From IMG/VR virus record IMGVR_UViG_2706794698_000009: a DNA stretch of 15,808 bases. The stretch is one strand, 5' to 3'. A program made the position numbers and the translations under genes. This DNA is from a virus (Duplodnaviria > Heunggongvirae > Uroviricota > Caudoviricetes). The notes under the pieces are model-generated. The model did not search any database. It saw only the letters and a program-made list of their open reading frames with translations, and was not told where the DNA came from. Positions 1-15,785 of this stretch are shown piece after piece. Numbering within the stretch: position 1 is the first letter of the stretch; each line of letters starts with the position of its first letter.

Positions 1-2
1 GT

Positions 3-488
3 AATAACATTAATAGAGAACAACACTTTATTGATCCTGATTTAGAAAAGAATCTAATATTAAAGTCTTTATTTATATCAAAAGTTGTTACTTACGGTAA
101 GTGTTTTACAGAGGCGAAAGGGCGTCGATTCACATTGCAGAGAAAGCATGTGCCAGAAAAATACAGAGATTTACATGATTCTATTATGAATGTTAGACAT
201 AACTTTGCTGCCCATAAAGGTGAATTTGAATATGATCAATGTGGCTTGGTTTTAATATTGCCGGGGACCAAGAAAAAAAGGTGCTATCATATTTTTTCAG
301 AACTCAATCAAATAAATTACGGTAATAATGAGGAAGATGATGAACGTTTTTTTATGTTATATGATTCACTGCGTAAAGTCATTAAAGAAAAACGAGATAA
401 ATTAATTGATAAAATATACGCTGAAAAGATTCATACTCAAACAATGGAGTATTGGTTGAGCCGAACAGGAAAAGAAACAGAGATTTAA
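3..488 (+). CDS. 5'-truncated AT-rich ORF of unknown function; possible HEPN-like defence or abortive-infection protein
   Basis: The frame is open from position 3 to the TAA at 486-488, with no in-frame stop upstream of the TTG at 135 used by the ORF track. Composition is about one-third GC by eye, far below the adjacent phage genes. Codons 195-215 encode R-H-N-F-A-A-H, which fits Rx4-6H. No family was recognised with certainty. Confidence 0.45.
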   Translation, partial: NNINREQHFIDPDLEKNLILKSLFISKVVTYGKCFTEAKGRRFTLQRKHVPEKYRDLHDSIMNVRHNFAAHKGEFEYDQCGLVLILPGTKKKRCYHIFSELNQINYGNNEEDDERFFMLYDSLRKVIKEKRDKLIDKIYAEKIHTQTMEYWLSRTGKETEI

Positions 489-770: not shown

Positions 771-965
771 TTAATCAATCACTCCCGCAAATCTGTAAAT
801 CTTGTGTGATGCCCATTTATTTGGGCAGGATTTAATATCAGGATCTGGAAAGTCAGGCCTGTATTTCTGGCCAGTTCTCCTGTTTACGCTGTTCCAGCGA
901 AGAACAGTCGATACTGAAACACCACAGAAATCGGCGACTTGTTTAGTTGTCATTAAGTTGTTCAT
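771..965 (-). CDS. Excisionase / AlpA-family HTH DNA-binding protein (putative recombination directionality factor)
   Basis: 64 aa; the segment TKQVADFCGVSVSTVLRW resembles the excisionase/AlpA-type HTH. AGGAGG lies 8 nt upstream of the ATG, and the start overlaps the upstream stop as TAATG. It is the last gene of the leftward operon. Confidence 0.6.
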   Translation of the reverse strand: MNNLMTTKQVADFCGVSVSTVLRWNSVNRRTGQKYRPDFPDPDIKSCPNKWASHKIYRFAGVID

Positions 966-1585
966 TACTTCACCTCCTGCGGCGGCTCCGGTAGCGGCAT
1001 CCAGTGGGTTACTTTCGATGCCGGTTCTTCCCCATTGTCAGTAACTGCCCACCATTTGTTTCTCGAACAATCGTAATACCCTTCGAAGGTATCGCACTCA
1101 GTCCAGCCGTAAGACTTACCCCAACACCAAACATACTGTTTATCGTTCGGCATTCGCTCACTACAGCTTATCCAACCATCCGGAGTTACCGGAGAGTTGC
1201 CCGACAGCTTGTTCAACTTGTAAGTCTGGCTTACAGGTTTGGCACCATGAAGCATGGTGGCGCGGCAGGCGTTCCAGCCTTCATCAAAACCGACTATGCC
1301 ATTATTTAAAGACGGACGAGCATCTGGCACCACCAGTACTGGCTTGGCTATATATAGCGGCTGAACATACCAGCCCTTTGATAACCAACTGTCAGCAATG
1401 TTTTTGCTCCTGGTTATTGCCGGAATACCTAAGCCATTGTCTGAATGCAGCCATGCCACCGGCTCCTCTTCCAGCGATGCCAGAGCAATTTCATAAGCAC
1501 GGCGCTCAATATCGTCTCGAACCTCTAGGCTGCTGATTCGTTCTTTGATTTCTTTAATCAGTTCTTTATTGGTAAATGTGGTCAT
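965..1585 (-). CDS. DUF551-domain prophage protein (YfdT-like, longer form)
   Basis: 206 aa; the C-terminus carries the DUF551-type signature (WCWGKSYGW ... VTHWMPLPEPP). The start overlaps the upstream stop as TAATG. Confidence 0.7.
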   Translation of the reverse strand: MTTFTNKELIKEIKERISSLEVRDDIERRAYEIALASLEEEPVAWLHSDNGLGIPAITRSKNIADSWLSKGWYVQPLYIAKPVLVVPDARPSLNNGIVGFDEGWNACRATMLHGAKPVSQTYKLNKLSGNSPVTPDGWISCSERMPNDKQYVWCWGKSYGWTECDTFEGYYDCSRNKWWAVTDNGEEPASKVTHWMPLPEPPQEVK

Positions 1586-1947
1586 TATGCTCCAGCCTCC
1601 GGCGCTTTGGGTATTACTGCCCAGTGAGTGATATTGAAGTTTTCAAGGTCCCCGACCTGAAATGTCCACTGCCATTCTCCGGTTTCTTTTTGTCCCCAGG
1701 TGTACCAGAGAGAACGCCAGCCAATCAGCCAGCCTTCTCCGTTAGCATCAAATAACAGAACACTTTCATTTGCTGGTGGCAGTTCAGCTGACACTGGTAT
1801 TATTTTGTTTTCCAGTGCCGCACATTTAGCTTCAAGCGCGTCGAATTTACGTACCAGGTACTCAGCATTTGTTTCGTTCACTTTCAGATCTCGCGGTACA
1901 CATTTCCCGCGAAGAAACCCTTCCATTTCGAAAACATTCATGCGCAT
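1585..1947 (-). CDS. yfdS: DUF551-domain prophage protein, YfdS-like
   Basis: 120 aa beginning MRMNVFEMEGFLRGK and containing ITHWAVIPKAPE; recognised from memory as YfdS of the CPS-53/KplE1 prophage. It overlaps the upstream gene by 10 nt. Confidence 0.7.
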   Translation of the reverse strand: MRMNVFEMEGFLRGKCVPRDLKVNETNAEYLVRKFDALEAKCAALENKIIPVSAELPPANESVLLFDANGEGWLIGWRSLWYTWGQKETGEWQWTFQVGDLENFNITHWAVIPKAPEAGA

Positions 1948-2402
1948 TTGCGTAACTCCGATAACTCGTTAAAACGTTCCATAAACATCCCGTAGGCATG
2001 GCCAGGTGCCAGTGGAATCACGTTGAACATCTCTGTTGCTGGGATGCCTTCCAGTACAGGCCAGAAAGAGCCATCATCAAGCCCGAGATCGCGGCGTTCG
2101 GTTGCCAGCATGATAAGATCGGCATATTTCACGGGCGTACTCATAACTGGGGGTAACCCGTATTTCTCACGGATTACGGCATCTATTTTTTCTTCCATCC
2201 GTTTATAGTCAGGAAGAAGGCGTTTCAGTGGCGCGGGAATGTCCTGACAATACGCTTCTGTTGCATCATGCATTAACGCTTCAAAAGCAAATTCCTGCGG
2301 TACCAGCTGGCTGCAAAGCACCGCATGTTGGGCGACGCTGTAGAAGTGTGAAAGATGTCCTGCAAAGCGACAGATATTTGAAAGGGAAACCGCGATATCG
2401 TT
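1938..2402 (-). CDS. yfdR: HD-domain 5'-deoxynucleotidase YfdR (N-terminus masked)
   Basis: The visible translation NDIAVSLSNICRFAGHLSHFYSVAQHAVLCSQLVPQEFAFEALMHDATEAY... contains the HD motif and matches remembered YfdR. The frame stays open into the N block at 2403, so the real start is inside the mask. Confidence 0.85.
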   Translation of the reverse strand, partial: NDIAVSLSNICRFAGHLSHFYSVAQHAVLCSQLVPQEFAFEALMHDATEAYCQDIPAPLKRLLPDYKRMEEKIDAVIREKYGLPPVMSTPVKYADLIMLATERRDLGLDDGSFWPVLEGIPATEMFNVIPLAPGHAYGMFMERFNELSELRKCA

Positions 2403-2662
2403 NNNNNNNNNNNNNNNNNNNNNNNNNNNNNNNNNNNNNNNNNNNNNNNNNNNNNNNNNNNNNNNNNNNNNNNNNNNNNNNNNNNNNNNNNNNNNNNNNN
2501 NNNNNNNNNNNNNNNNNNNNNNNNNNNNNNNNNNNNNNNNNNNNNNNNNNNNNNNNNNNNNNNNNNNNNNNNNNNNNNNNNNNNNNNNNNNNNNNNNNNN
2601 NNNNNNNNNNNNNNNNNNNNNNNNNNNNNNNNNNNNNNNNNNNNNNNNNNNNNNNNNNNNNN

Positions 2663-3445
2663 TTTGAATTTCTCAACAAGCAGATCACGAAATTCGTTAG
2701 CCATATCTTCCTGCACCGCTTCCAGCTGAATAATGCGCAGAACCAGTACAGGACGATCGCCAGTGATAATGCTGAGGCGTAATTTAAACGGACGTTCTTT
2801 CAGACCTTCAAACGGAACGCATTTAAATTCAAATGCCACTGGCATAATGTCTTTGGTCTTCGCTTCGACAGATTCCATCAGGGAGCGTTTGCCGCTGAAG
2901 TCATTATCTTCAAAATCAGCGGTCTGGTTTGCTTCAATCGTGATTTTACGGATTGCCGCAGCCGCTTTTGTTGCCTGAATGGCGTCACCATTAGCATCAA
3001 AGCCCACAAGGTAATCGGCCCAGTCTTCAATCCATTCTGCCAGTGACTTCTGGGAGTTACGCTCGCCGTTAACAGACAACAGTGCAGAGAACGGTGCTGT
3101 CTTTTTCAGTTTGAGAGTGGCGGTGTTATCTGCGTGACCTGGTTCATTAATAGTACCCAGGTTAAGCACACTGACGGCACGCATATTATCATCATCGATA
3201 AAGCAGCGGGTGCCTTCATCTGCAAGATCTTTAGAATAACGGGTAAAATCATCGATGCTGGCAGTGGAAAGCGCACCACGGAAACGGAAGCGATTTAAAT
3301 TAAATTTTTCCAGATCATGAATGCGGAAATTCTCAGGCAATGCTACAGCATCGGCACCAATCTTACTGATAATTTCATTAACACCCTGAGCAGAAATAAG
3401 GGCATGGATTTGATTAATTGCAGTTGCGTCTAAGCTCTGAGACAT
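2663..3445 (-). CDS. yfdQ: YfdQ-like DUF2303 prophage protein (C-terminus masked)
   Basis: The ATG at 3445 has GAGGA 6 nt upstream. 261 aa are visible and the frame runs into the N block at 2662. The ORF-track 390-aa product is an artefact of translating N as X across two genes. Confidence 0.6.
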
Positions 3446-3510
3446 AATAAGTCCTCACTATATTAAGATATTCAGTGATGAGATAAATAATCAGTTAATT
3501 AAGAACGATA

Positions 3511-3873
3511 TTAATGACCTGCTGCGCGGAGTTTTCCGTCAGGATCACCGGCAAGAGTCAGTAATTGTCCCTGGTCTTCCTGCAGAATAGTCAGGCGACC
3601 ACCGCGATTGACATACATCGGCGTTTCGGTGGTGTCTTCTTCGGAAATTTTCCCGCGGTTAGTCGGGCGAACATATGAGAGTTTGTGTTTGATTTTCACA
3701 CGGTTCTCATCAAACGGTTCGATTTCCAGGTTGAGCGAGACCTTACCTTTGGTTTTCGTGTTCATCACACCGGAAGCGACTTCACTGAGAACTGCGCCGA
3801 TTTTGGTTTCAAATACGCCGCCGTCCAGCTCCCCAATAAATGCCTGCACATCAGTACTGCGTTCGCTAGCCAT
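3511..3873 (-). CDS. Small early-left prophage protein of unknown function (YfdP-like position)
   Basis: 120 aa if started at the ATG giving MASERSTDV..., which has GAGGAG 7 nt upstream. Two further in-frame ATGs at 3891 and 3888 would give 126 aa. Protein-like composition; no motif recognised. Confidence 0.6.
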   Translation of the reverse strand: MASERSTDVQAFIGELDGGVFETKIGAVLSEVASGVMNTKTKGKVSLNLEIEPFDENRVKIKHKLSYVRPTNRGKISEEDTTETPMYVNRGGRLTILQEDQGQLLTLAGDPDGKLRAAGH

Positions 3874-4480
3874 TTTGCTGCTCCTCATCATATCGACCCT
3901 GCAAGGTCGGTTGGTTTCTCCACAAAACAGAGAAGAACACCTGCGGTGGCAGCCGCCCGGATGGATTGGGTTATGAGCCCNNNNNNNNNNNNNNNNNNNN
4001 NNNNNNNNNNNNNNNNNNNNNNNNNNNNNNNNNNNNNNNNNNNNNNNNNNNNNNNNNNNNNNNNNNNNNNNNNNNNNNNNNNNNNNNNNNNNNNNNNNNN
4101 NNNNNNNNNNNNNNNNNNNNNNNNNNNNNNNNNNNNNNNNNNNNNNNNNNNNNNNNNNNNNNNNNNNNNNNNNNNNNNNNNNNNNNNNNNNNNNNNNNNN
4201 NNNNNNNNNNNNNNNNNNNNNNNNNNNNNNNNNNNNNNNNNTCCATAAATGCCCTCATCGTTGCACCCTGGTCTCTTCCCAGGCGTCAAACCGAATCGCC
4301 ACGCTGGTTAGGCGTCTTATCAGCATCATCATTGACTTGCACATTCCGGCTACCTGGTTTGTTTGCCCGAGCAAGGAGTGGATTGTCCCCTTTAACGTCC
4401 CCAGACCGCTAACGACGCATGTGCCATACGCCGTGTTACAACCAAATTTTGTTAGTACCTTGTTTGTTTGTCTGGAAAGA

Positions 4481-4533
4481 AAGATAAAATGAAGTTGCGC
4501 ATTATGCAAGTGTTTTTGTTGCGAGATATGCAA
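4481..4533 (-). promoter_or_regulatory. Leftward early promoter region with two candidate repressor operators (OL/PL-like)
   Basis: Two 15-bp dyads of the form TTGC-N7-GCAA: TTGCGCATTATGCAA (4495-4509) and TTGCGAGATATGCAA (4519-4533). On the minus strand a TTGCAT -35 lies inside the first dyad, with a weak TATCTT 17 bp downstream. Confidence 0.4.
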
Positions 4534-4544
4534 TTTAAAGGGTA

Positions 4545-4568
4545 ATGAAAAGCCACCTTTGGGTGGCT
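4545..4568 (-). terminator. Intrinsic terminator downstream of the repressor gene
   Basis: A 7-bp GC-rich stem, AGCCACC (4551-4557) and GGTGGCT (4562-4568), with loop TTTG. On the minus strand it is followed by TTTTCATT. It lies about 20 nt past the repressor stop. Confidence 0.5.
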
Positions 4569-4588
4569 AATTGATGAGGAGGTAAGGG

Positions 4589-5281
4589 TTAATTGTGTCG
4601 CTTAAGGGTTTGTGACTGGCTGATTAAGACCTTTCCAAAGACCATAAACCGGTGTTCATTTTCGCTGGTAATTCCCCATTCACGGTAAATCTGGTTATCA
4701 GAAATCACCAGTAGTTTGTCAGGTATCATTTGCAGTCGTTTGACATAAATTTTATCATCAAAACCAAATACATAGATACCATCTCCATCAAACTGATTGA
4801 TACTGACATCAACGAAGATGAGATCTCCTGGCTCAATGGTTGGACACATACTGTCCCCACGAACGTTGATAACTTTAATGTGATTGGCTGGCCGTCCGCC
4901 AAACATCGATACAGCATTATCAGTTCTGTATTCAATGGCATGAATCACATCAATGACATCACCGCCCTGGATAAGGCCATTTCCCGCACTGGCACTGACA
5001 TCCAGCATTTCAATACGGAATACATCCTTCACCTGCGCAACATCCTCACTAATACTGTTTTTACATACAGTATTACTTTTGACGTCTGAGGTAAAGAGAT
5101 CAGCAATATCAACACCTAAGCTCCTGGCAATATTACTCAGGGCTTGTTCAGTGAATTGTTTCTGCTTACCTGTTTCCAGGCGTGAGATATTCGCCGCATC
5201 CACTCCTATTGCTTCAGCGAGATCGGCGATTTTCATGTTCTTCGCCTGGCGAAGTTGTCTGACTCGGTTTCCTATGTTCAT
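4589..5281 (-). CDS. cI-like prophage repressor (N-terminal XRE-type HTH, C-terminal S24 LexA-like autopeptidase)
   Basis: 230 aa. The N-terminus (IADLAEAIGVDAANISRLETGK) is HTH-like. The C-terminus carries a candidate Ala-Gly cleavage site (SASAGNG), the Ser motif GDSM and the Lys motif VKRL. The gene is divergent from the cro-like gene. Confidence 0.85.
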   Translation of the reverse strand: MNIGNRVRQLRQAKNMKIADLAEAIGVDAANISRLETGKQKQFTEQALSNIARSLGVDIADLFTSDVKSNTVCKNSISEDVAQVKDVFRIEMLDVSASAGNGLIQGGDVIDVIHAIEYRTDNAVSMFGGRPANHIKVINVRGDSMCPTIEPGDLIFVDVSINQFDGDGIYVFGFDDKIYVKRLQMIPDKLLVISDNQIYREWGITSENEHRFMVFGKVLISQSQTLKRHN

Positions 5282-5287
5282 GCGTTT

Positions 5288-5364
5288 ATTACATTTCTTT
5301 ATTGCGCGTTAAGCAAATCAACTTGCGCAAAATATTTGCGTGAAATAATATGCTCATCACGCAA
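5288..5364. promoter_or_regulatory. Divergent PRM/PR-like switch region with operator dyads
   Basis: A third TTGC-N7-GCAA dyad, TTGCGCGTTAAGCAA, sits at 5302-5316. The palindrome TTGCGCAA is at 5323-5330, and TTGCGTGA-N13-TCACGCAA at 5336-5364. Rightward promoter: -35 TTGCGC (5323-5328), 17-bp spacer, -10 TAATAT (5346-5351). Leftward promoter: -35 TTGCTT (complement of 5311-5316), 17-bp spacer, -10 TGTAAT (complement of 5288-5293), which would give a near-leaderless repressor mRNA. Confidence 0.5.
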
Positions 5365-5378
5365 TATGTGGAGGTCAT

Positions 5379-5639
5379 ATGCAATCACCATTACGGAATG
5401 TGCGTAAGGCGCACGGATTTACTTTGCAGCATGTTGCTGCTGGCGTTCAGGTCAATCCAGCGACGCTGAGTCGTATTGAAAGACTGGAACAAATTCCATC
5501 TATCGATCTTGCAGAACGTCTGGCCAATTTTTTTAAGGGTGAAATCAGCGAAATGCAGATTCTTTATCCGGCACGTTTTCAATCTAGCCAAAACCAGAAT
5601 GGGTTTAAACCACAGGAACAGGAGGTAAGCCGTGGGTAA
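5379..5639 (+). CDS. Cro-like XRE-family HTH regulator
   Basis: 86 aa with HTH segment FTLQHVAAGVQVNPATLSRIERLEQIPSID. GGAGG at 5370-5374 precedes the ATG. It is the first gene of the rightward operon, opposite the repressor. Confidence 0.7.
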   Translation: MQSPLRNVRKAHGFTLQHVAAGVQVNPATLSRIERLEQIPSIDLAERLANFFKGEISEMQILYPARFQSSQNQNGFKPQEQEVSRG

Positions 5640-6183
5640 TCATCACTGGAAAGTGGAAAAACAGCCTGAGTGGTACGTGAAAGCTGTCAGAAAAACTATC
5701 GCAGCGTTGCCGGGTGGTTACGCTGAAGCAGCTGACTGGCTGGATGTAACAGAAAACGCATTATTTAACCGCCTTCGTGCCGATGGCGATCAGATTTTCC
5801 CGCTGGGATGGGCAATGATTTTGCAACGTGCTGGTGGAACTCACTTCATTGCTGACGCTGTGGCGCAGTCTGCAAATGGCGTCTTTGTGTCTCTTCCTGA
5901 CGTCGAGGATGTGGACAACGCCGATATTAACCAGCGCCTGCTGGAAGTCATTGAACAGATTGGCAGTTATTCCAGACAGATTCGTTCGGCAATCGAAGAC
6001 GGTGTGGTGGAACCGCATGAGAAGACAGCAATTAACGACGAGCTGTATCTCTCAATTTCGAAGCTGCAGGAGCATGCAGCACTGGTCTACAAAATCTTTT
6101 GCATTTCAGAAAGTAATGACGCCCGCGAGTGTGCAGCTCCGGGCGCCGTGGCGTGTCGTGACTGTGGAGAAACTAACGCATGA
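5632..6183 (+). CDS. Early regulatory protein in the cII position (possibly 186-CII/CP76-like or YdaT-like); function uncertain
   Basis: 183 aa. The GTG start at 5632 has GGAGG at 5620-5624 and overlaps the cro-like stop. The family assignment is from memory and weak. Confidence 0.45.
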
Positions 6184-6518
6184 ACAGTTTAACAACACAC
6201 TACCGTCGCTCGCAACTGATTGCGCTTCCTGTACCGGGTGGAAAAGCGAAGGTGGAGTATTGCTATGCAGTTAATGTACCAGGTGACAGGGAAATTGTAA
6301 CCCACAGCTTTGCTGAGTGGGCTGTGGGTGATTTCAACCGGCAGAAGGAGACAGTCCTTTGCGACAAGTTAACCGCTGGTTCAAAGATCACTACGGAGTG
6401 CCCGTCAGAGTCATTCGTTGGGAGCCGGAAACACAACGAGTTATCTACCTCCGCGAAGGCTATGAGCATGAGTGCTTCAGCCCGCTCGAACAGTTTCGTC
6501 GTAAATTCAGGGAAATAG
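6180..6518 (+). CDS. Hypothetical protein, possibly frameshifted; only the first half looks coding
   Basis: The ATG overlaps the upstream TGA as ATGA. Residues 1 to about 60 look protein-like; the rest is Ser/Thr-rich low complexity, while another frame looks coding over the same DNA. Confidence 0.3.
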
Positions 6519-6538
6519 AGGTCGGTCATGAGCACTAA
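6359..6538 (+). CDS. Alternative-frame small ORF (59 aa), or the 3' part of a frameshifted gene
   Basis: TTG at 6359 with AAGGAG (6344-6349) 9 nt upstream. The translation [59 protein letters not shown] is protein-like. Its TAA at 6536-6538 overlaps the start of the replication gene at 6528. Confidence 0.35.
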
Positions 6539-7469
6539 ATTAACCGGCTATGTATGGGATGGTTGCGCTGCATCAGGCATGAAATTATCCAGCGTGGCAA
6601 TTATGGCCCGCCTGGCTGATTTCAGTAATGACGAAGGTGTGTGCTGGCCATCAATTGAAACTATTGCCCGTCAGATTGGCGCGGGGATGAGTACCGTCAG
6701 GACGGCTATCGCGCGGCTGGAAGCAGAAGGCTGGTTAACGCGTAAGGCGCGTCGCCAGGGTAACCGCAATGCGTCGAATGTTTATCAGCTTAACGTTGCG
6801 AAGCTTCAGGCAGCGGCATTTTCTCAACTGTCAGATTCTGACCCGTCAAAATCTGACGCATCAAAATCTGACCCGTCAAAATTTGATGCGTCGAAATCTG
6901 GCAAAAAAGCGGGTTTTCACCCGTCAGAATCTGGCGGGGATCCGTCAGTAAAATCAAAACATGATCCGTCAGATAAAAAACCTTCTCGTCCGGACGCTTC
7001 GCAACCGGACACGCAGACGGATGAACAGGATTTTTTAACTCGCCATCCTGATGCGGTTGTATTCAGCCCTAAAAAGCGCCAGTGGGGAACGCAGGATGAT
7101 TTGACCTGCGCACAGTGGCTCTGGAAAAAAATCATCGCCCTGTACGAGCAAGCCGCCGAATGTGACGGCGAGGTGGTTCGTCCCAAAGAACCGAACTGGA
7201 CAGCCTGGGCAAACGAAATTCGCCTGATGTGTGTGCAGGATGGTCGTACTCACAAACAAATCTGCGAGATGTACAGCCGCGTCAGCCGCGATCCGTTCTG
7301 GTGCCGTAACGTGCTCAGCCCGTCGAAGTTGCGGGAAAAATGGGATGAGCTTTCCCTGCGCTTATCACCGTCCGTCAGCACGTACACCGAAAAACGCGAA
7401 GACCCGTACTTCAAATCCAGTTACGACAACGTGGACTACAGCCAGATCCCGGCAGGATTCAGGGGGTGA
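6528..7469 (+). CDS. Phage replication initiation protein (O-like; N-terminal winged-HTH, repeat linker, C-terminal DnaT-like region)
   Basis: 313 aa. The N-terminus (ARLADFSNDEGVCWPSIETIARQIGAGMSTVRTAIARLEAEGWL) resembles the replication-initiator HTH. The internal pentapeptide repeats DPSKS/DASKS are encoded by DNA iterons. Position is right of the cro/cII-like genes. Confidence 0.7.
   Translation: MSTKLTGYVWDGCAASGMKLSSVAIMARLADFSNDEGVCWPSIETIARQIGAGMSTVRTAIARLEAEGWLTRKARRQGNRNASNVYQLNVAKLQAAAFSQLSDSDPSKSDASKSDPSKFDASKSGKKAGFHPSESGGDPSVKSKHDPSDKKPSRPDASQPDTQTDEQDFLTRHPDAVVFSPKKRQWGTQDDLTCAQWLWKKIIALYEQAAECDGEVVRPKEPNWTAWANEIRLMCVQDGRTHKQICEMYSRVSRDPFWCRNVLSPSKLREKWDELSLRLSPSVSTYTEKREDPYFKSSYDNVDYSQIPAGFRG
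6827..6979 (+). repeat. Iteron array (candidate phage origin of replication) inside the initiator gene
   Basis: Five contiguous 15-bp direct repeats with consensus CCGTCAAAATCTGA span 6827-6901. Three further spaced copies lie at 6920-6934, 6941-6955 and 6965-6979. This is analogous to the lambda origin inside gene O. Confidence 0.6.
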
Positions 7470-7471
7470 TC

Positions 7472-7960
7472 ATGAGTCTGTTAAATGACGTTCAGAAATT
7501 CATTGAAGCCCATCCGGGGTGTACTTCCGGAGACATTGCGGATGCTTTTGCAGGTTACTCACGGCAGCGCGTTCTGCAGTCTGCAAGCAAGTTACGTCAG
7601 AGTGGGCGTGTGGCTCACCGTTGTGAAGGAGATACACGCAGACATTTCCCGCGCCTGACTGAGAGAGCGCAGGAGCCGGAACCACAACCAGTTCGTGAAA
7701 CCAGACCTGTGCGCAATTTCTATGTCGGCACTAACGATCCCCGGGTGATTTTGTGCCTGACCCGCCAGGCGGAAGAACTGGAGTCCAGGGGCTTATACCG
7801 TCGTGCTGCAACGGTGTGGATGGCGGCATTCCGTGAAAGCCACTCCCAGCCAGAACGAAACAATTTTCTGGCGCGTCGTGAGCAGTGTTTACGGAAAAGC
7901 AGCAAGCGTGCTGTATCGAGTGATGAGTGGTATCTGTCAGGGAATTACGTGGGGGCTTAA
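7472..7960 (+). CDS. Putative regulator with a PerC-like C-terminal motif
   Basis: 162 aa from the ATG at 7472, which has AGGGGG upstream; the ORF-track GTG at 7466 overlaps the previous stop. The motif AEELESRGLYRRAATVWMAAF resembles PerC-family activators from memory. Confidence 0.45.
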   Translation: MSLLNDVQKFIEAHPGCTSGDIADAFAGYSRQRVLQSASKLRQSGRVAHRCEGDTRRHFPRLTERAQEPEPQPVRETRPVRNFYVGTNDPRVILCLTRQAEELESRGLYRRAATVWMAAFRESHSQPERNNFLARREQCLRKSSKRAVSSDEWYLSGNYVGA

Positions 7961-8308
7961 TGAGTAATAAATATTGCCAGGCGCTGGTGGAACTACGGAA
8001 CAAACCAGCCCATGAACTGAAGGAAGTGGGCGATCAGTGGCGCACGCCGGATAACATTTTCTGGGGAATTAACACTCTGTTTGGCCCGTTTGTTCTGGAT
8101 CTTTTTACTGACGGTGATAACGCCAAATGTGCCGCGTATTACACGGCGGAAGACAACGCGCTGGCGCATGACTGGTCAGAACGTCTTGCGGAGCTTAAAG
8201 GTGCTGCCTTTGGTAATCCCCCATACAGCCGCGCCAGTCAGCATGAGGGGCAATACATCACCGGCATGCGTTACATCATGAAGCATGCCAGTGCCATGCG
8301 TGATAAAG
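7960..8308 (+). CDS. Phage Dam-type DNA N6-adenine methyltransferase (C-terminus masked)
   Basis: The ATG at 7960 overlaps the upstream TAA. Translation contains WRTPDNIFWGINTLFGPFVLDLFTDGDNAKC and the NPPY-type catalytic motif GNPPYS. The frame runs into the N block at 8309. Confidence 0.7.
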
Positions 8309-8622
8309 NNNNNNNNNNNNNNNNNNNNNNNNNNNNNNNNNNNNNNNNNNNNNNNNNNNNNNNNNNNNNNNNNNNNNNNNNNNNNNNNNNNNNNNNNNNN
8401 NNNNNNNNNNNNNNNNNNNNNNNNNNNNNNNNNNNNNNNNNNNNNNNNNNNNNNNNNNNNNNNNNNNNNNNNNNNNNNNNNNNNNNNNNNNNNNNNNNNN
8501 NNNNNNNNNNNNNNNNNNNNNNNNNNNNNNNNNNNNNNNNNNNNNNNNNNNNNNNNNNNNNNTGAGGCGTTTCTGGCGCAGGTTCGCCAGCAGGCGGAAA
8601 AACTGGTCAGGGAGATGGCGGC

Positions 8623-12555: not shown

Positions 12556-12855
12556 AAAAATTCCTTAATACTGATAACTGGGCGCACTATACACACGTTC
12601 CTGAAGAAAGCTATAGTTTTTTGATGGGGTTGAAGATGGCTGGATGTCTAAAATAAACATTGCTTCATATGTTCAACTATGCGTTAATGATTGCGTCGGT
12701 TTGAAGAACAGACGATATACGAAGTAGTTTACTAAAGCAGTTCTCATTTCAGGTGTTATTCACTTATTCCTTCTTTGAGTCTCTCCAATTAAGTACGAAG
12801 TCGTTTCTGTTATACAAGCCATTTATGCCGAAAGGCTCAAGTTAAGGAATGTAGA

Positions 12856-13071
12856 ATGTCAAATAAAATGACTGGTTTAGTAAAATGGTTTAACGCTGAT
12901 AAAGGTTTTGGCTTTATTTCTCCTGTTGATGGTAGTAAAGATGTGTTTGTGCATTTTTCTGCGATTCAGAATGATAATTTTCGAACCTTATTTGAAGGTC
13001 AAAAGGTTACCTTCTCTGTAGAGAGTGGTGCTAAAGGTCCTGCAGCAGCAAATGTCATAATTACTGATTAA
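12856..13071 (+). CDS. cspB: Cold-shock protein CspB
   Basis: 71 aa: [71 protein letters not shown], near-identical to remembered CspB. It has a long upstream leader typical of cold-shock genes. Confidence 0.9.
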
Positions 13072-13755
13072 AATTCATAGTTTGTCTGTATACGATAACG
13101 AAGAAGGCTGATGCCTGAGTGGAGATACAGACAGAGTGGTGAATATTGGATCTCTTTAATAAATAGTAAGGAGGTCCAATACATGAAACAATGGCCAGCA
13201 TATTTGGCAATAACTTAATCAGGAAAAGTATGCTAACCATTGTGGTGAAGTGCAGGTTTGCTGCATGAATAGTTTTACAGCAGAAGCTAACTGCTGGCAT
13301 AGCAAAACAAAGTGCGTAAGTGGATGACNNNNNNNNNNNNNNNNNNNNNNNNNNNNNNNNNNNNNNNNNNNNNNNNNNNNNNNNNNNNNNNNNNNNNNNN
13401 NNNNNNNNNNNNNNNNNNNNNNNNNNNNNNNNNNNNNNNNNNNNNNNNNNNNNNNNNNNNNNNNNNNNNNNNNNNNNNNNNNNNNNNNNNNNNNNNNNNN
13501 NNNNNNNNNNTGATTTTGAGTCTTTACGTTCTGACATAGGCTTTTCCTGTATAAATGGCCGTATACAGTACACTAAATATGAAAACATATCTCGTATTAT
13601 TATTTAATACATGATTTTCTTTTAAAATAATTACCCACATTTTTAATGTGTCTGTTTTTTAGCGCCGTTGAGAACAATGTTTGCTATAAAAACTAACCCA
13701 TAGACTCCGATCTTTTCAAACATATTGCACCATCTGTGTACATCGGGGCGAGGAT

Positions 13756-13916: not shown

Positions 13917-14165
13917 NNNNNNNNNNNNNNNNNNNNNNNNNNNNNNNNNNNNNNNNNNNNNNNNNNNNNNNNNNNNNNNNNNNNNNNNNNNNNNNNNNNN
14001 NNNNNNNNNNNNNNNNNNNNNNNNNNNNNNNNNNNNNNNNNNNNNNNNNNNNNNNNNNNNNNNNNNNNNNNNNNNNNNNNNNNNNNNNNNNNNNNNNNNN
14101 NNNNNNNNNNNNNNNNNNNNNNNNNNNNNNNNNNNNNNNNNNNNNNNNNNNNNNNNNNNNNGAAT

Positions 14166-14357: not shown

Positions 14358-14763
14358 NNNNNNNNNNNNNNNNNNNNNNNNNNNNNNNNNNNNNNNNNNN
14401 NNNNNNNNNNNNNNNNNNNNNNNNNNNNNNNNNNNNNNNNNNNNNNNNNNNNNNNNNNNNNNNNNNNNNNNNNNNNNNNNNNNNNNNNNNNNNNNNNNNN
14501 NNNNNNNNNNNNNNNNNNNNNNNNNNNNNNNNNNNNNNNNNNNNNNNNNNNNNNNNNNNNNNNNNNNNNNNNNNNNNNNNNNNNNNNNNNNNNNNNNNNN
14601 NNNNNNNTTAAATCAGCAAAAGTTTGTTTTGGTAGATTTGTGTAATCCATAGTCACCTCTGTGTTTATCAGATTGACATCCTCCTCCCGCCAGTGCCCAT
14701 CACTGGTGAGGTAAGATTTAACATATCCGGGGATTTGAAGCCGATAAATCCTGATAAATATCC

Positions 14764-15785
<1,022 letters not shown>

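Follow-up and report, generated by a model that had tools for sequence, protein, structure and literature searches.

What is encoded by the AT-rich open reading frame (ORF) with which the IMG/VR virus record IMGVR_UViG_2706794698_000009 begins, and why should such a gene be carried beside an excisionase-like gene in the genome of a tailed phage? The stretch of DNA analysed, referred to below as the window, is 15,808 nt in length (Caudoviricetes), and an initial annotation had picked out at positions 1-488 a separately acquired ORF with a motif resembling that of HEPN ribonucleases (RNases), which it placed at a prophage edge where defence genes are often carried. It would seem that this gene, called here the cargo gene, encodes a stand-alone cytoplasmic HEPN-type RNase that forms exchangeable prophage cargo and protects the lysogen by abortive infection, a reading to which a probability of roughly 0.58 is given on the combined evidence of motif conservation, predicted fold and genomic position. 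The gene probably represents a family, new and unannotated, of abortive-infection nucleases that are HEPN-type and solo, and systems of this kind are already known.

The cargo gene, its motif and its predicted fold

Frame 3 of the plus strand is uninterrupted from position 3 of the window through 161 codons, up to the TAA stop at 486-488. The ORF is indeed cut by the window edge and longer than the 117 aa at which it had been listed, a length that arises because it was counted from the first in-window start, a TTG at 135. The complete gene is found in Escherichia coli 806883-11-2019 (NZ_CP099752.1; locus L001, 7769-8488), a genome identical (100%) to positions 1-770 of the window. It is 720 nt long, encodes a protein of 239 aa (WP_088529308.1) and has a good Shine-Dalgarno sequence, AAGAGGG, upstream of its ATG. 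The start codon (L001 7769) lies 232 nt upstream of the window, in which positions 1-488 (+) hold the 3' two-thirds of the gene, codons 79-239.

This is a real gene that is under purifying selection, with a ratio of non-synonymous to synonymous substitution rates (dN/dS) of 0.10-0.12 in comparisons with copies that are 75-85% identical, and it belongs to a large family: an exhaustive profile search recovered 925 clusters (50% identity) at E <= 0.001, 399 of them at E <= 1e-10. On these two grounds a chance ORF is ruled out. Relatives are found in Salmonella, Vibrio, Aeromonas and Betaproteobacteria, one E. coli variant of the family is present on at least 1000 contigs, and of 5,426 complete E. 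coli genomes 71 have positions 1-770 of the window, in every case as part of the chromosome. The database copies examined are annotated as "hypothetical protein", the sole other label seen being "endonuclease" in a note to the record of a filamentous Vibrio phage, and no precomputed Pfam domain is attached to any database copy among the family members listed, of 357 relatives found.

Two alignments were used, A1 of 25 close clusters obtained by a word-indexed search and A2 of 123 homologues, 19-54% identical to the E. coli protein, that were drawn from the clusters of the exhaustive search. When A1 was used to search for loci among species-representative genomes, one related locus only was recovered. 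A second homologue search, made with the profile of A2, yielded no protein to which a precomputed Pfam domain is attached.

The motif first noticed, R143-H-N-F-A-A-H149, is encoded exactly at nucleotides 195-215 (+) and is followed by K150-G151, to nucleotide 221. The caution that so short a motif might arise by chance was well founded for the motif by itself, as 77-79% of shuffles of the cargo protein contain at least one Rx4-6H and the protein has a second, R120-H127, that is unconserved. Since most shuffles contain one, the motif alone is not above chance and its evidential weight lies in its conservation. In A2 only Y109, R119, H136 and R143 are invariant (123/123); H149 is retained by 122 of the sequences, A148 by 118 and G151 by 119, and the spacing from arginine to histidine is fixed at five residues. 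A lack of conservation of the R/H pair among homologues had been named as one ground for refuting the HEPN reading, and the pair is conserved. Residue 144 is H in 69 sequences, N in 52 and D in two with no others seen, so that the signature of the family is R-[H/N/D]-x-x-x-A-H-x-G. This agrees with the published HEPN motif, Rx4-6H, in which the arginine is directly followed by "mostly N, D or H" (Anantharaman et al., PMC3710099).

Conservation extends beyond the motif. The stretch Y109-G-K111-C-F113 ... G118-R119 (93-125, +), which covers the conserved end of helix 2 and runs into the loop that joins it to helix 3, has K111 kept in 120/123, F113 in 119/123 and G118 in 111/123, and D63, upstream of the window, is kept in 122/123. 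The codon of the invariant histidine H136 is at 174-176 (+), within the helix predicted at 130-148; H136 precedes R143 by seven residues, or two helical turns, and presumably lies on the same face of helix 3.

The protein is predicted to consist of a small N-terminal beta unit and a four-helix bundle. The AlphaFold2 model of the E. coli protein built with A1 (predicted local distance difference test score, pLDDT, 87; predicted template modelling score, pTM, 0.77) has three N-terminal strands (9-36), helices at 49-79, 92-111, 130-148 and 188-221, with R119 on the loop at 112-129, and a beta-hairpin at 157-180 between helices 3 and 4. A second model, of a Photobacterium homologue that is 32% identical and was modelled with a separate alignment, has the same layout (pLDDT 89). 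In both models the motif, residues 143-149 of the E. coli protein, forms the C-terminal end of the third long helix. What distinguishes HEPN domains from other bundles of four helices is that helices 2 and 3 are separated by inserts (PMC3710099). The predicted layout, an up-down bundle, is HEPN-like in that an insert separates helix 2 from helix 3 and the motif stands where helix 3 ends, leading into the loop to helix 4. The models thus support a placing of the motif where HEPN domains have it, in keeping with the published description (PMC3710099), and together with the conservation of R143 and H149 they lend support to the interpretation first offered.

The int-xis slot and other genomic contexts

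In NZ_CP099752.1 the order of genes is yjjG, a short gene remnant, a tyrosine integrase (int, +), the cargo gene (+), the excisionase-like (xis-like) gene (-), DUF551, yfdS, yfdR, yfdQ, yfdP, and cI-like and cro-like regulators. The same arrangement is found in the genome record of Escherichia phage 2H10, at 99.3% identity. As the integrase stands between the cargo gene and the chromosomal flank, the cargo gene is second from the prophage end, in the gap between int and xis; its earlier placing at the prophage edge is right in that the end is close, but the integrase intervenes. The xis-like gene (771-965, -; 64 aa) is convergent with the cargo gene and has weak matches to HTH_17 and HTH_23 (E 1.4e-4). 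Its counterpart at L001 8771-8965 is unannotated in NZ_CP099752.1, and the gene is labelled "Phage protein" in 2H10 and as a helix-turn-helix (HTH) domain protein in E. coli 2015C-3108.

Sibling prophages were found by searching E. coli genomes with the region from int through DUF551, and four of them carry other genes in the int-xis gap. The flanks are 93-96% identical in three of the four, the fourth having a right flank that is 84% identical. In YJ4 the gap holds a 566-aa AIPR protein recognised by PADLOC as AbiU (E 2.6e-111) and in 2015C-3108 a 408-aa HD-domain protein recognised by PADLOC as a dGTPase (E 8e-105), whilst HCM-28C-2 (locus L015, 3000-4028) and FAM21845 (locus L016, 2909-4150) hold proteins of unknown kind, of 342 and 413 aa respectively, with no match in Pfam or PADLOC. 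Because AbiU and a dGTPase fill the same slot, the latter two are candidates for further defence genes. Breakpoints determined by blastn fall at the integrase stop (L001 7465-7490), with homology back at L001 8677-8735, which is 677-735 of the window; the AT-rich segment is therefore a replaceable cassette of ~1.2 kb, with the xis-like gene as part of the backbone and as the right flank of the slot. The contents of the int-xis gap vary, and in siblings they include known defence genes, which makes the gap a prophage defence hotspot. Both the separate acquisition of the ORF and the position for defence cargo beside the xis-like gene, as proposed in the initial annotation, are thus supported. 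With AbiU, a dGTPase, the cargo gene and two genes of unknown kind already seen in it, the gap is a small and well-delimited place in which to look for further defence genes.

The base composition is in keeping with this. The G+C content is 30.9% over 1-488, 34.4% over 489-770 and 48.2% over 771-8000 (figures that exclude runs of N), much as estimated by eye at about one third against half for the neighbouring genes. Enterobacterial copies of the gene are always more AT-rich than their surroundings, with 31-38% G+C against 43-50%. Beyond the stop codon the cargo segment ends in an AT-rich non-coding tail (489-735), sibling homology resuming between 677 and 735, and no terminator was found in this tail.

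The family is not confined to this slot. In P2/186-like prophages of Enterobacter, Citrobacter and Yersinia the homologue is found directly after cI-int, at the prophage end. Its predicted start in these prophages overlaps the end of int by 17-20 nt (loci L002, 4989-6732; L011, 4962-6708; L003; L004), which suggests that the homologue is co-transcribed with the cI-int lysogenic operon and translationally coupled to it. The int-att gap of P2 was reported as a minor defence hotspot in a 2026 survey (PMC13586616). In a Cronobacter prophage the homologue is at the end, after tail-fibre and umuDC-like genes, in an E. coli phage-plasmid it follows the lysis genes, and the filamentous Vibrio phage 10N.286.54.E4_PE002 (Tubulavirales, 10.9 kb) carries a homologue of 28% identity (locus L018, 5902-6639). 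Finally, in Photobacterium sp. J15 the homologue is the only gene of an integron cassette that has attC-type repeats on both sides. The array (locus L010, 1-12702; LSNH01000002.1) is a chromosomal integron with at least 15 attC-type repeats of ~106-125 nt, and its other cassettes encode DUF2726, FRG, SAD_SRA-HNH, methyltransferase and CyanoTRADDas_TM proteins, a combination that seems defence-rich.

Across the contexts examined no neighbour is shared by the homologues, and so there is no conserved adjacent partner, gene or RNA, such as a two-gene toxin-antitoxin system would have. The E. coli and Cronobacter copies have in common only the ORF with 18 nt to either side, and neither tandem repeats nor Rfam matches were found around the cargo gene. 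From these three observations it follows that the cargo gene is an autonomous single-gene module.

It is nonetheless worth asking whether a partner has been overlooked, as there is a precedent in Tha of Staphylococcus aureus prophages, a tail-activated HEPN RNase that is encoded in the lysogeny module beside int and adjoined by a small convergent gene annotated as xis (PMC11087260). In phage 80alpha this gene, long annotated as xis, proved to be the inhibitor of the adjacent Tha (PMC11087260). The cargo gene resembles that description, as a candidate HEPN gene beside int with a small convergent xis-like gene as its immediate neighbour; no sequence relationship to Tha was seen, no test aimed at one having been made. 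After its stop codon, in the AT-rich tail of the cassette, there is a 19-codon ORF (533-592, +; MIKADYIAIGTLRLTFQQE) preceded by the strong Shine-Dalgarno sequence TAAGGAG. The cargo protein might then be the toxin of a two-part system whose other half is the xis-like gene, the 19-codon ORF or an antisense RNA. Such an arrangement is considered very improbable: Tha is paired with its inhibitor Ith, whereas here the xis-like gene is backbone and stays in the conserved flank whatever the cargo, be it AbiU, a dGTPase or genes of unknown kind; the 19-codon ORF is not common to the Cronobacter copy; searches for repeats and Rfam matches gave nothing; and the P2-like prophages, the phage-plasmid, the inovirus and the single-gene integron cassette share no neighbour. 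Three specific candidates were rejected. The xis-like gene was set aside as a cargo-specific inhibitor on the Tha/Ith model as it is part of the conserved flank, the 19-codon ORF is probably no partner because it is absent from the region shared with the Cronobacter copy, and a type III antitoxin RNA or repeats were looked for and none found.

The same contexts bear on whether a HEPN-type RNase would serve host defence at all. The motif and the structural evidence would apply equally to an addiction or stabilisation toxin, a weapon in competition among mobile elements or a regulator of the carrier's own life cycle, for example one that cuts host or phage RNA at induction. A role of that sort would fit a gene that has int and xis for neighbours in the lysogeny module and is apparently coupled to int in P2-like phages, and in a related preprint an AbiU2-domain integron cassette could not be cloned alone, which hints at toxicity. 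The gene, however, is accompanied by neither a conserved antitoxin gene nor a small ORF nor a repeat RNA, its varied positions (after lysis genes, after tail fibres, in an inovirus, in an integron) argue against a part in integration or excision, and classical defence cargo occupies the same slot. A non-defence RNase is therefore thought improbable, and protection of the lysogen by the cargo gene is the reading that is retained.

Relation to curated HEPN families

The family most often matched when the 123 members of A2 were scanned against Pfam was HEPN_AbiU2 (PF18734), with six of the 123 at E values from 0.0022 to 1, and no other Pfam family recurs among them. AbiU2 is an abortive-infection HEPN family that is often found solo or in restriction-modification contexts (PMC3710099), and it stems from the abiU locus of Lactococcus lactis. 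The weak matches run across helix 2, the loop and helix 3 as far as the R-x5-H. In the best-matching member, P0123, residues 69-139 are matched, the last of them being the histidine of RHEYIAH (profile 68-133 of 193), and in P0155 it covers residues 118-146, which include RNTFTAH (profile 113-142), such that both motifs fall on the same profile positions, ~127-133. On sequence grounds this is a faint but consistent signal of distant relatedness, which would make the cargo family at most a distant sister of AbiU2 and not a member of it. An integron cassette of Vibrio mimicus with an AbiU2 domain has been reported to protect against T4 and T7 (bioRxiv 10.64898/2026.03.17.712381). This cassette probably belongs to a different family from that of the cargo protein, because Vibrio relatives of the latter have no Pfam AbiU2 annotation.

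Sequence identity to HEPN proteins of solved structure is likewise low. HepT of the HepT/MntA system (HEPN-MNT type II; PDB 7ae2) and YutE (1ylm) are 10-11% identical to the cargo protein; their motif is Rx4HxY, and the cargo protein differs from both in having extra beta elements. HepT/MntA is, moreover, defined by an adjacent nucleotidyltransferase antitoxin, whereas none is found beside the cargo gene or its homologues. Vpc_cass2, an HEPN protein from an integron cassette (PDB 3jrt), is 10% identical and has no sequence-profile link to it. Given that the AbiU2 threshold is not reached, that no sequence link to solved structures exists and that there is no MNT partner, the cargo protein is, as far as its sequence can place it, in no curated family.

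A number of results weigh against reading the cargo protein as a HEPN defence RNase. The single motif from which this reading was first drawn is no better than chance. Neither the partial nor the full protein has a significant match in Pfam, NCBIfam or PADLOC, and no PADLOC model exists for it. Profile searches of PDB sequences with A1 and A2 returned spurious matches only and no HEPN entry. The best HEPN_AbiU2 score, 17.9 bits, is far below the gathering cut-off of 26.8, the E. coli cargo protein has no match to this profile at all, none was found in the sisters of P0123, and consensus sequences of the family match at E 0.19-0.74 or not at all, no better than single members. Matches to the predicted fold are generic four-helix bundles, among them, at similar Z, CheA P1 phosphotransfer and sensor domains, so the fold evidence is compatible with HEPN and enriched for it, yet non-specific, and Foldseek searches of PDB and BFVD gave no match. 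Many HEPN domains have a second conserved acidic residue in helix 2, typically in the form Ex3[K/R], although this is not universal (PMC3710099); here both E61-x3-R65 and D63, which is near-invariant, belong to the first long helix (49-79) instead. To this may be added that a scan for promoters and terminators beside the cargo gene found nothing usable on its strand, and that no functional experiments on the family were found in the literature searched.

Some of these points would also suit a protein that is no nuclease, a helical bundle whose conserved R, H, Y and K bind a ligand or partner, such as an anti-defence protein, a superinfection-exclusion factor, a phosphotransfer-like domain or a regulator, with a convergent likeness to HEPN. 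The generic fold matches, the want of any HEPN profile above threshold and the (near-)invariance of D63, Y109, K111, R119 and H136, all of which are outside the canonical HEPN signature, are in its favour. Against it stand the conserved R/H pair and the predicted placing of that pair where helix 3 ends, and it is regarded as unlikely. Furthermore, no confident homology to a non-HEPN family emerged for the full-length protein, its one strong match being to PHROG 8440 (E 6e-143), for which the function is unknown. Each refuting condition of the initial annotation that was put to the test by computation came out in favour of its reading.

Proposed mode of action

If the cargo gene is a HEPN-type abortive-infection RNase, as is preferred here, its mode of action is most likely, by analogy, that of HepS, Tha, ApeA and AbiD/F. 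ApeA and AbiD/F, like HepS and Tha, are single-protein HEPN defences. The best functional model for it is HepS of Salmonella prophage Gifsy-1, which is made in the lysogen in an inactive form and, once a structural protein of a phage has triggered it, cuts the anticodon loops of tRNA (PMC13043305). HepS is a single HEPN protein of less than 250 aa that is carried as prophage cargo without a partner, features in which the cargo gene resembles it. The two differ in that no sequence similarity was detected; the profile searches of PDB sequences returned no HEPN entry, the presence of a HepS chain among those sequences being unchecked.

From what is known of HEPN proteins, HepS and Tha, the cargo protein would be expected to oligomerise, with R143 and H149 of two subunits forming a metal-independent RNase site. 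It would be made in the lysogen and kept inactive, expression there being in keeping with its position behind int and, in P2-like phages, behind cI-int. A component of an infecting phage may then trigger the protein, which could cut tRNA, mRNA or rRNA to leave 2',3'-cyclic phosphate ends, and cleavage of RNA would halt translation and with it the infection. The N-terminal beta unit and the hairpin are candidates for the part of a sensor, and the conservation of D63, Y109, K111, R119 and H136 suggests an enlarged active or binding site. A bolder form of this proposal, in which the protein is a self-contained sensor-effector of a new HEPN lineage, with the beta unit and hairpin sensing the phage trigger and Y109, K111, R119 and H136, besides R143 and H149, giving it a substrate or chemistry unlike that of known HEPN anticodon nucleases, is put forward as a doubtful extension only.

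Should the defence reading be confirmed, a sizeable family would join the single-gene HEPN immunity proteins. The understanding of HEPN defence would not be changed by it, as a protein of this type will not surprise a specialist; the useful points are the size of the family, the several kinds of mobile element that carry it and a neat hotspot. If the sensor-effector reading were true, the gene would be among the most portable single-gene immunity modules of Gammaproteobacteria, because one gene would suffice in prophages of lambdoid, P2-like, filamentous and plasmid type as well as in integrons. The phage 2H10 record carries the cargo gene, and a comparison of a natural lysogen with a deletion therefore looks feasible.

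Two IMG/VR proviral copies of the cargo gene are frameshifted. Indel mapping against L001 places in one of them (L040) an additional A within the A7 homopolymer at 273-279 (+; codons K168-K170), whilst the other (L041) lacks one A from an A6 run ~10 nt before the window start and again has an additional A in the A7 run, which leaves 94 codons, the motif included, out of frame. These homopolymer frameshifts could reflect slippage that inactivates a costly gene, or sequencing error in homopolymers.

Elsewhere in the window there are seven masked runs of N, of 182-261 nt each and 1,702 N in total (2403-2662, 3981-4241, 8309-8562, 13329-13510, 13917-14161, 14358-14607 and 14929-15178), which give rise to false low-GC troughs in composition profiles and to broken ORFs. 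A full-length cspA thermoregulator RNA element is found at 12695-13134 (+; Rfam RF01766, with 156.5 bits where the gathering score is 78), and within it a 71-aa ORF (12856-13071) that is presumably a prophage-borne cold-shock protein gene.
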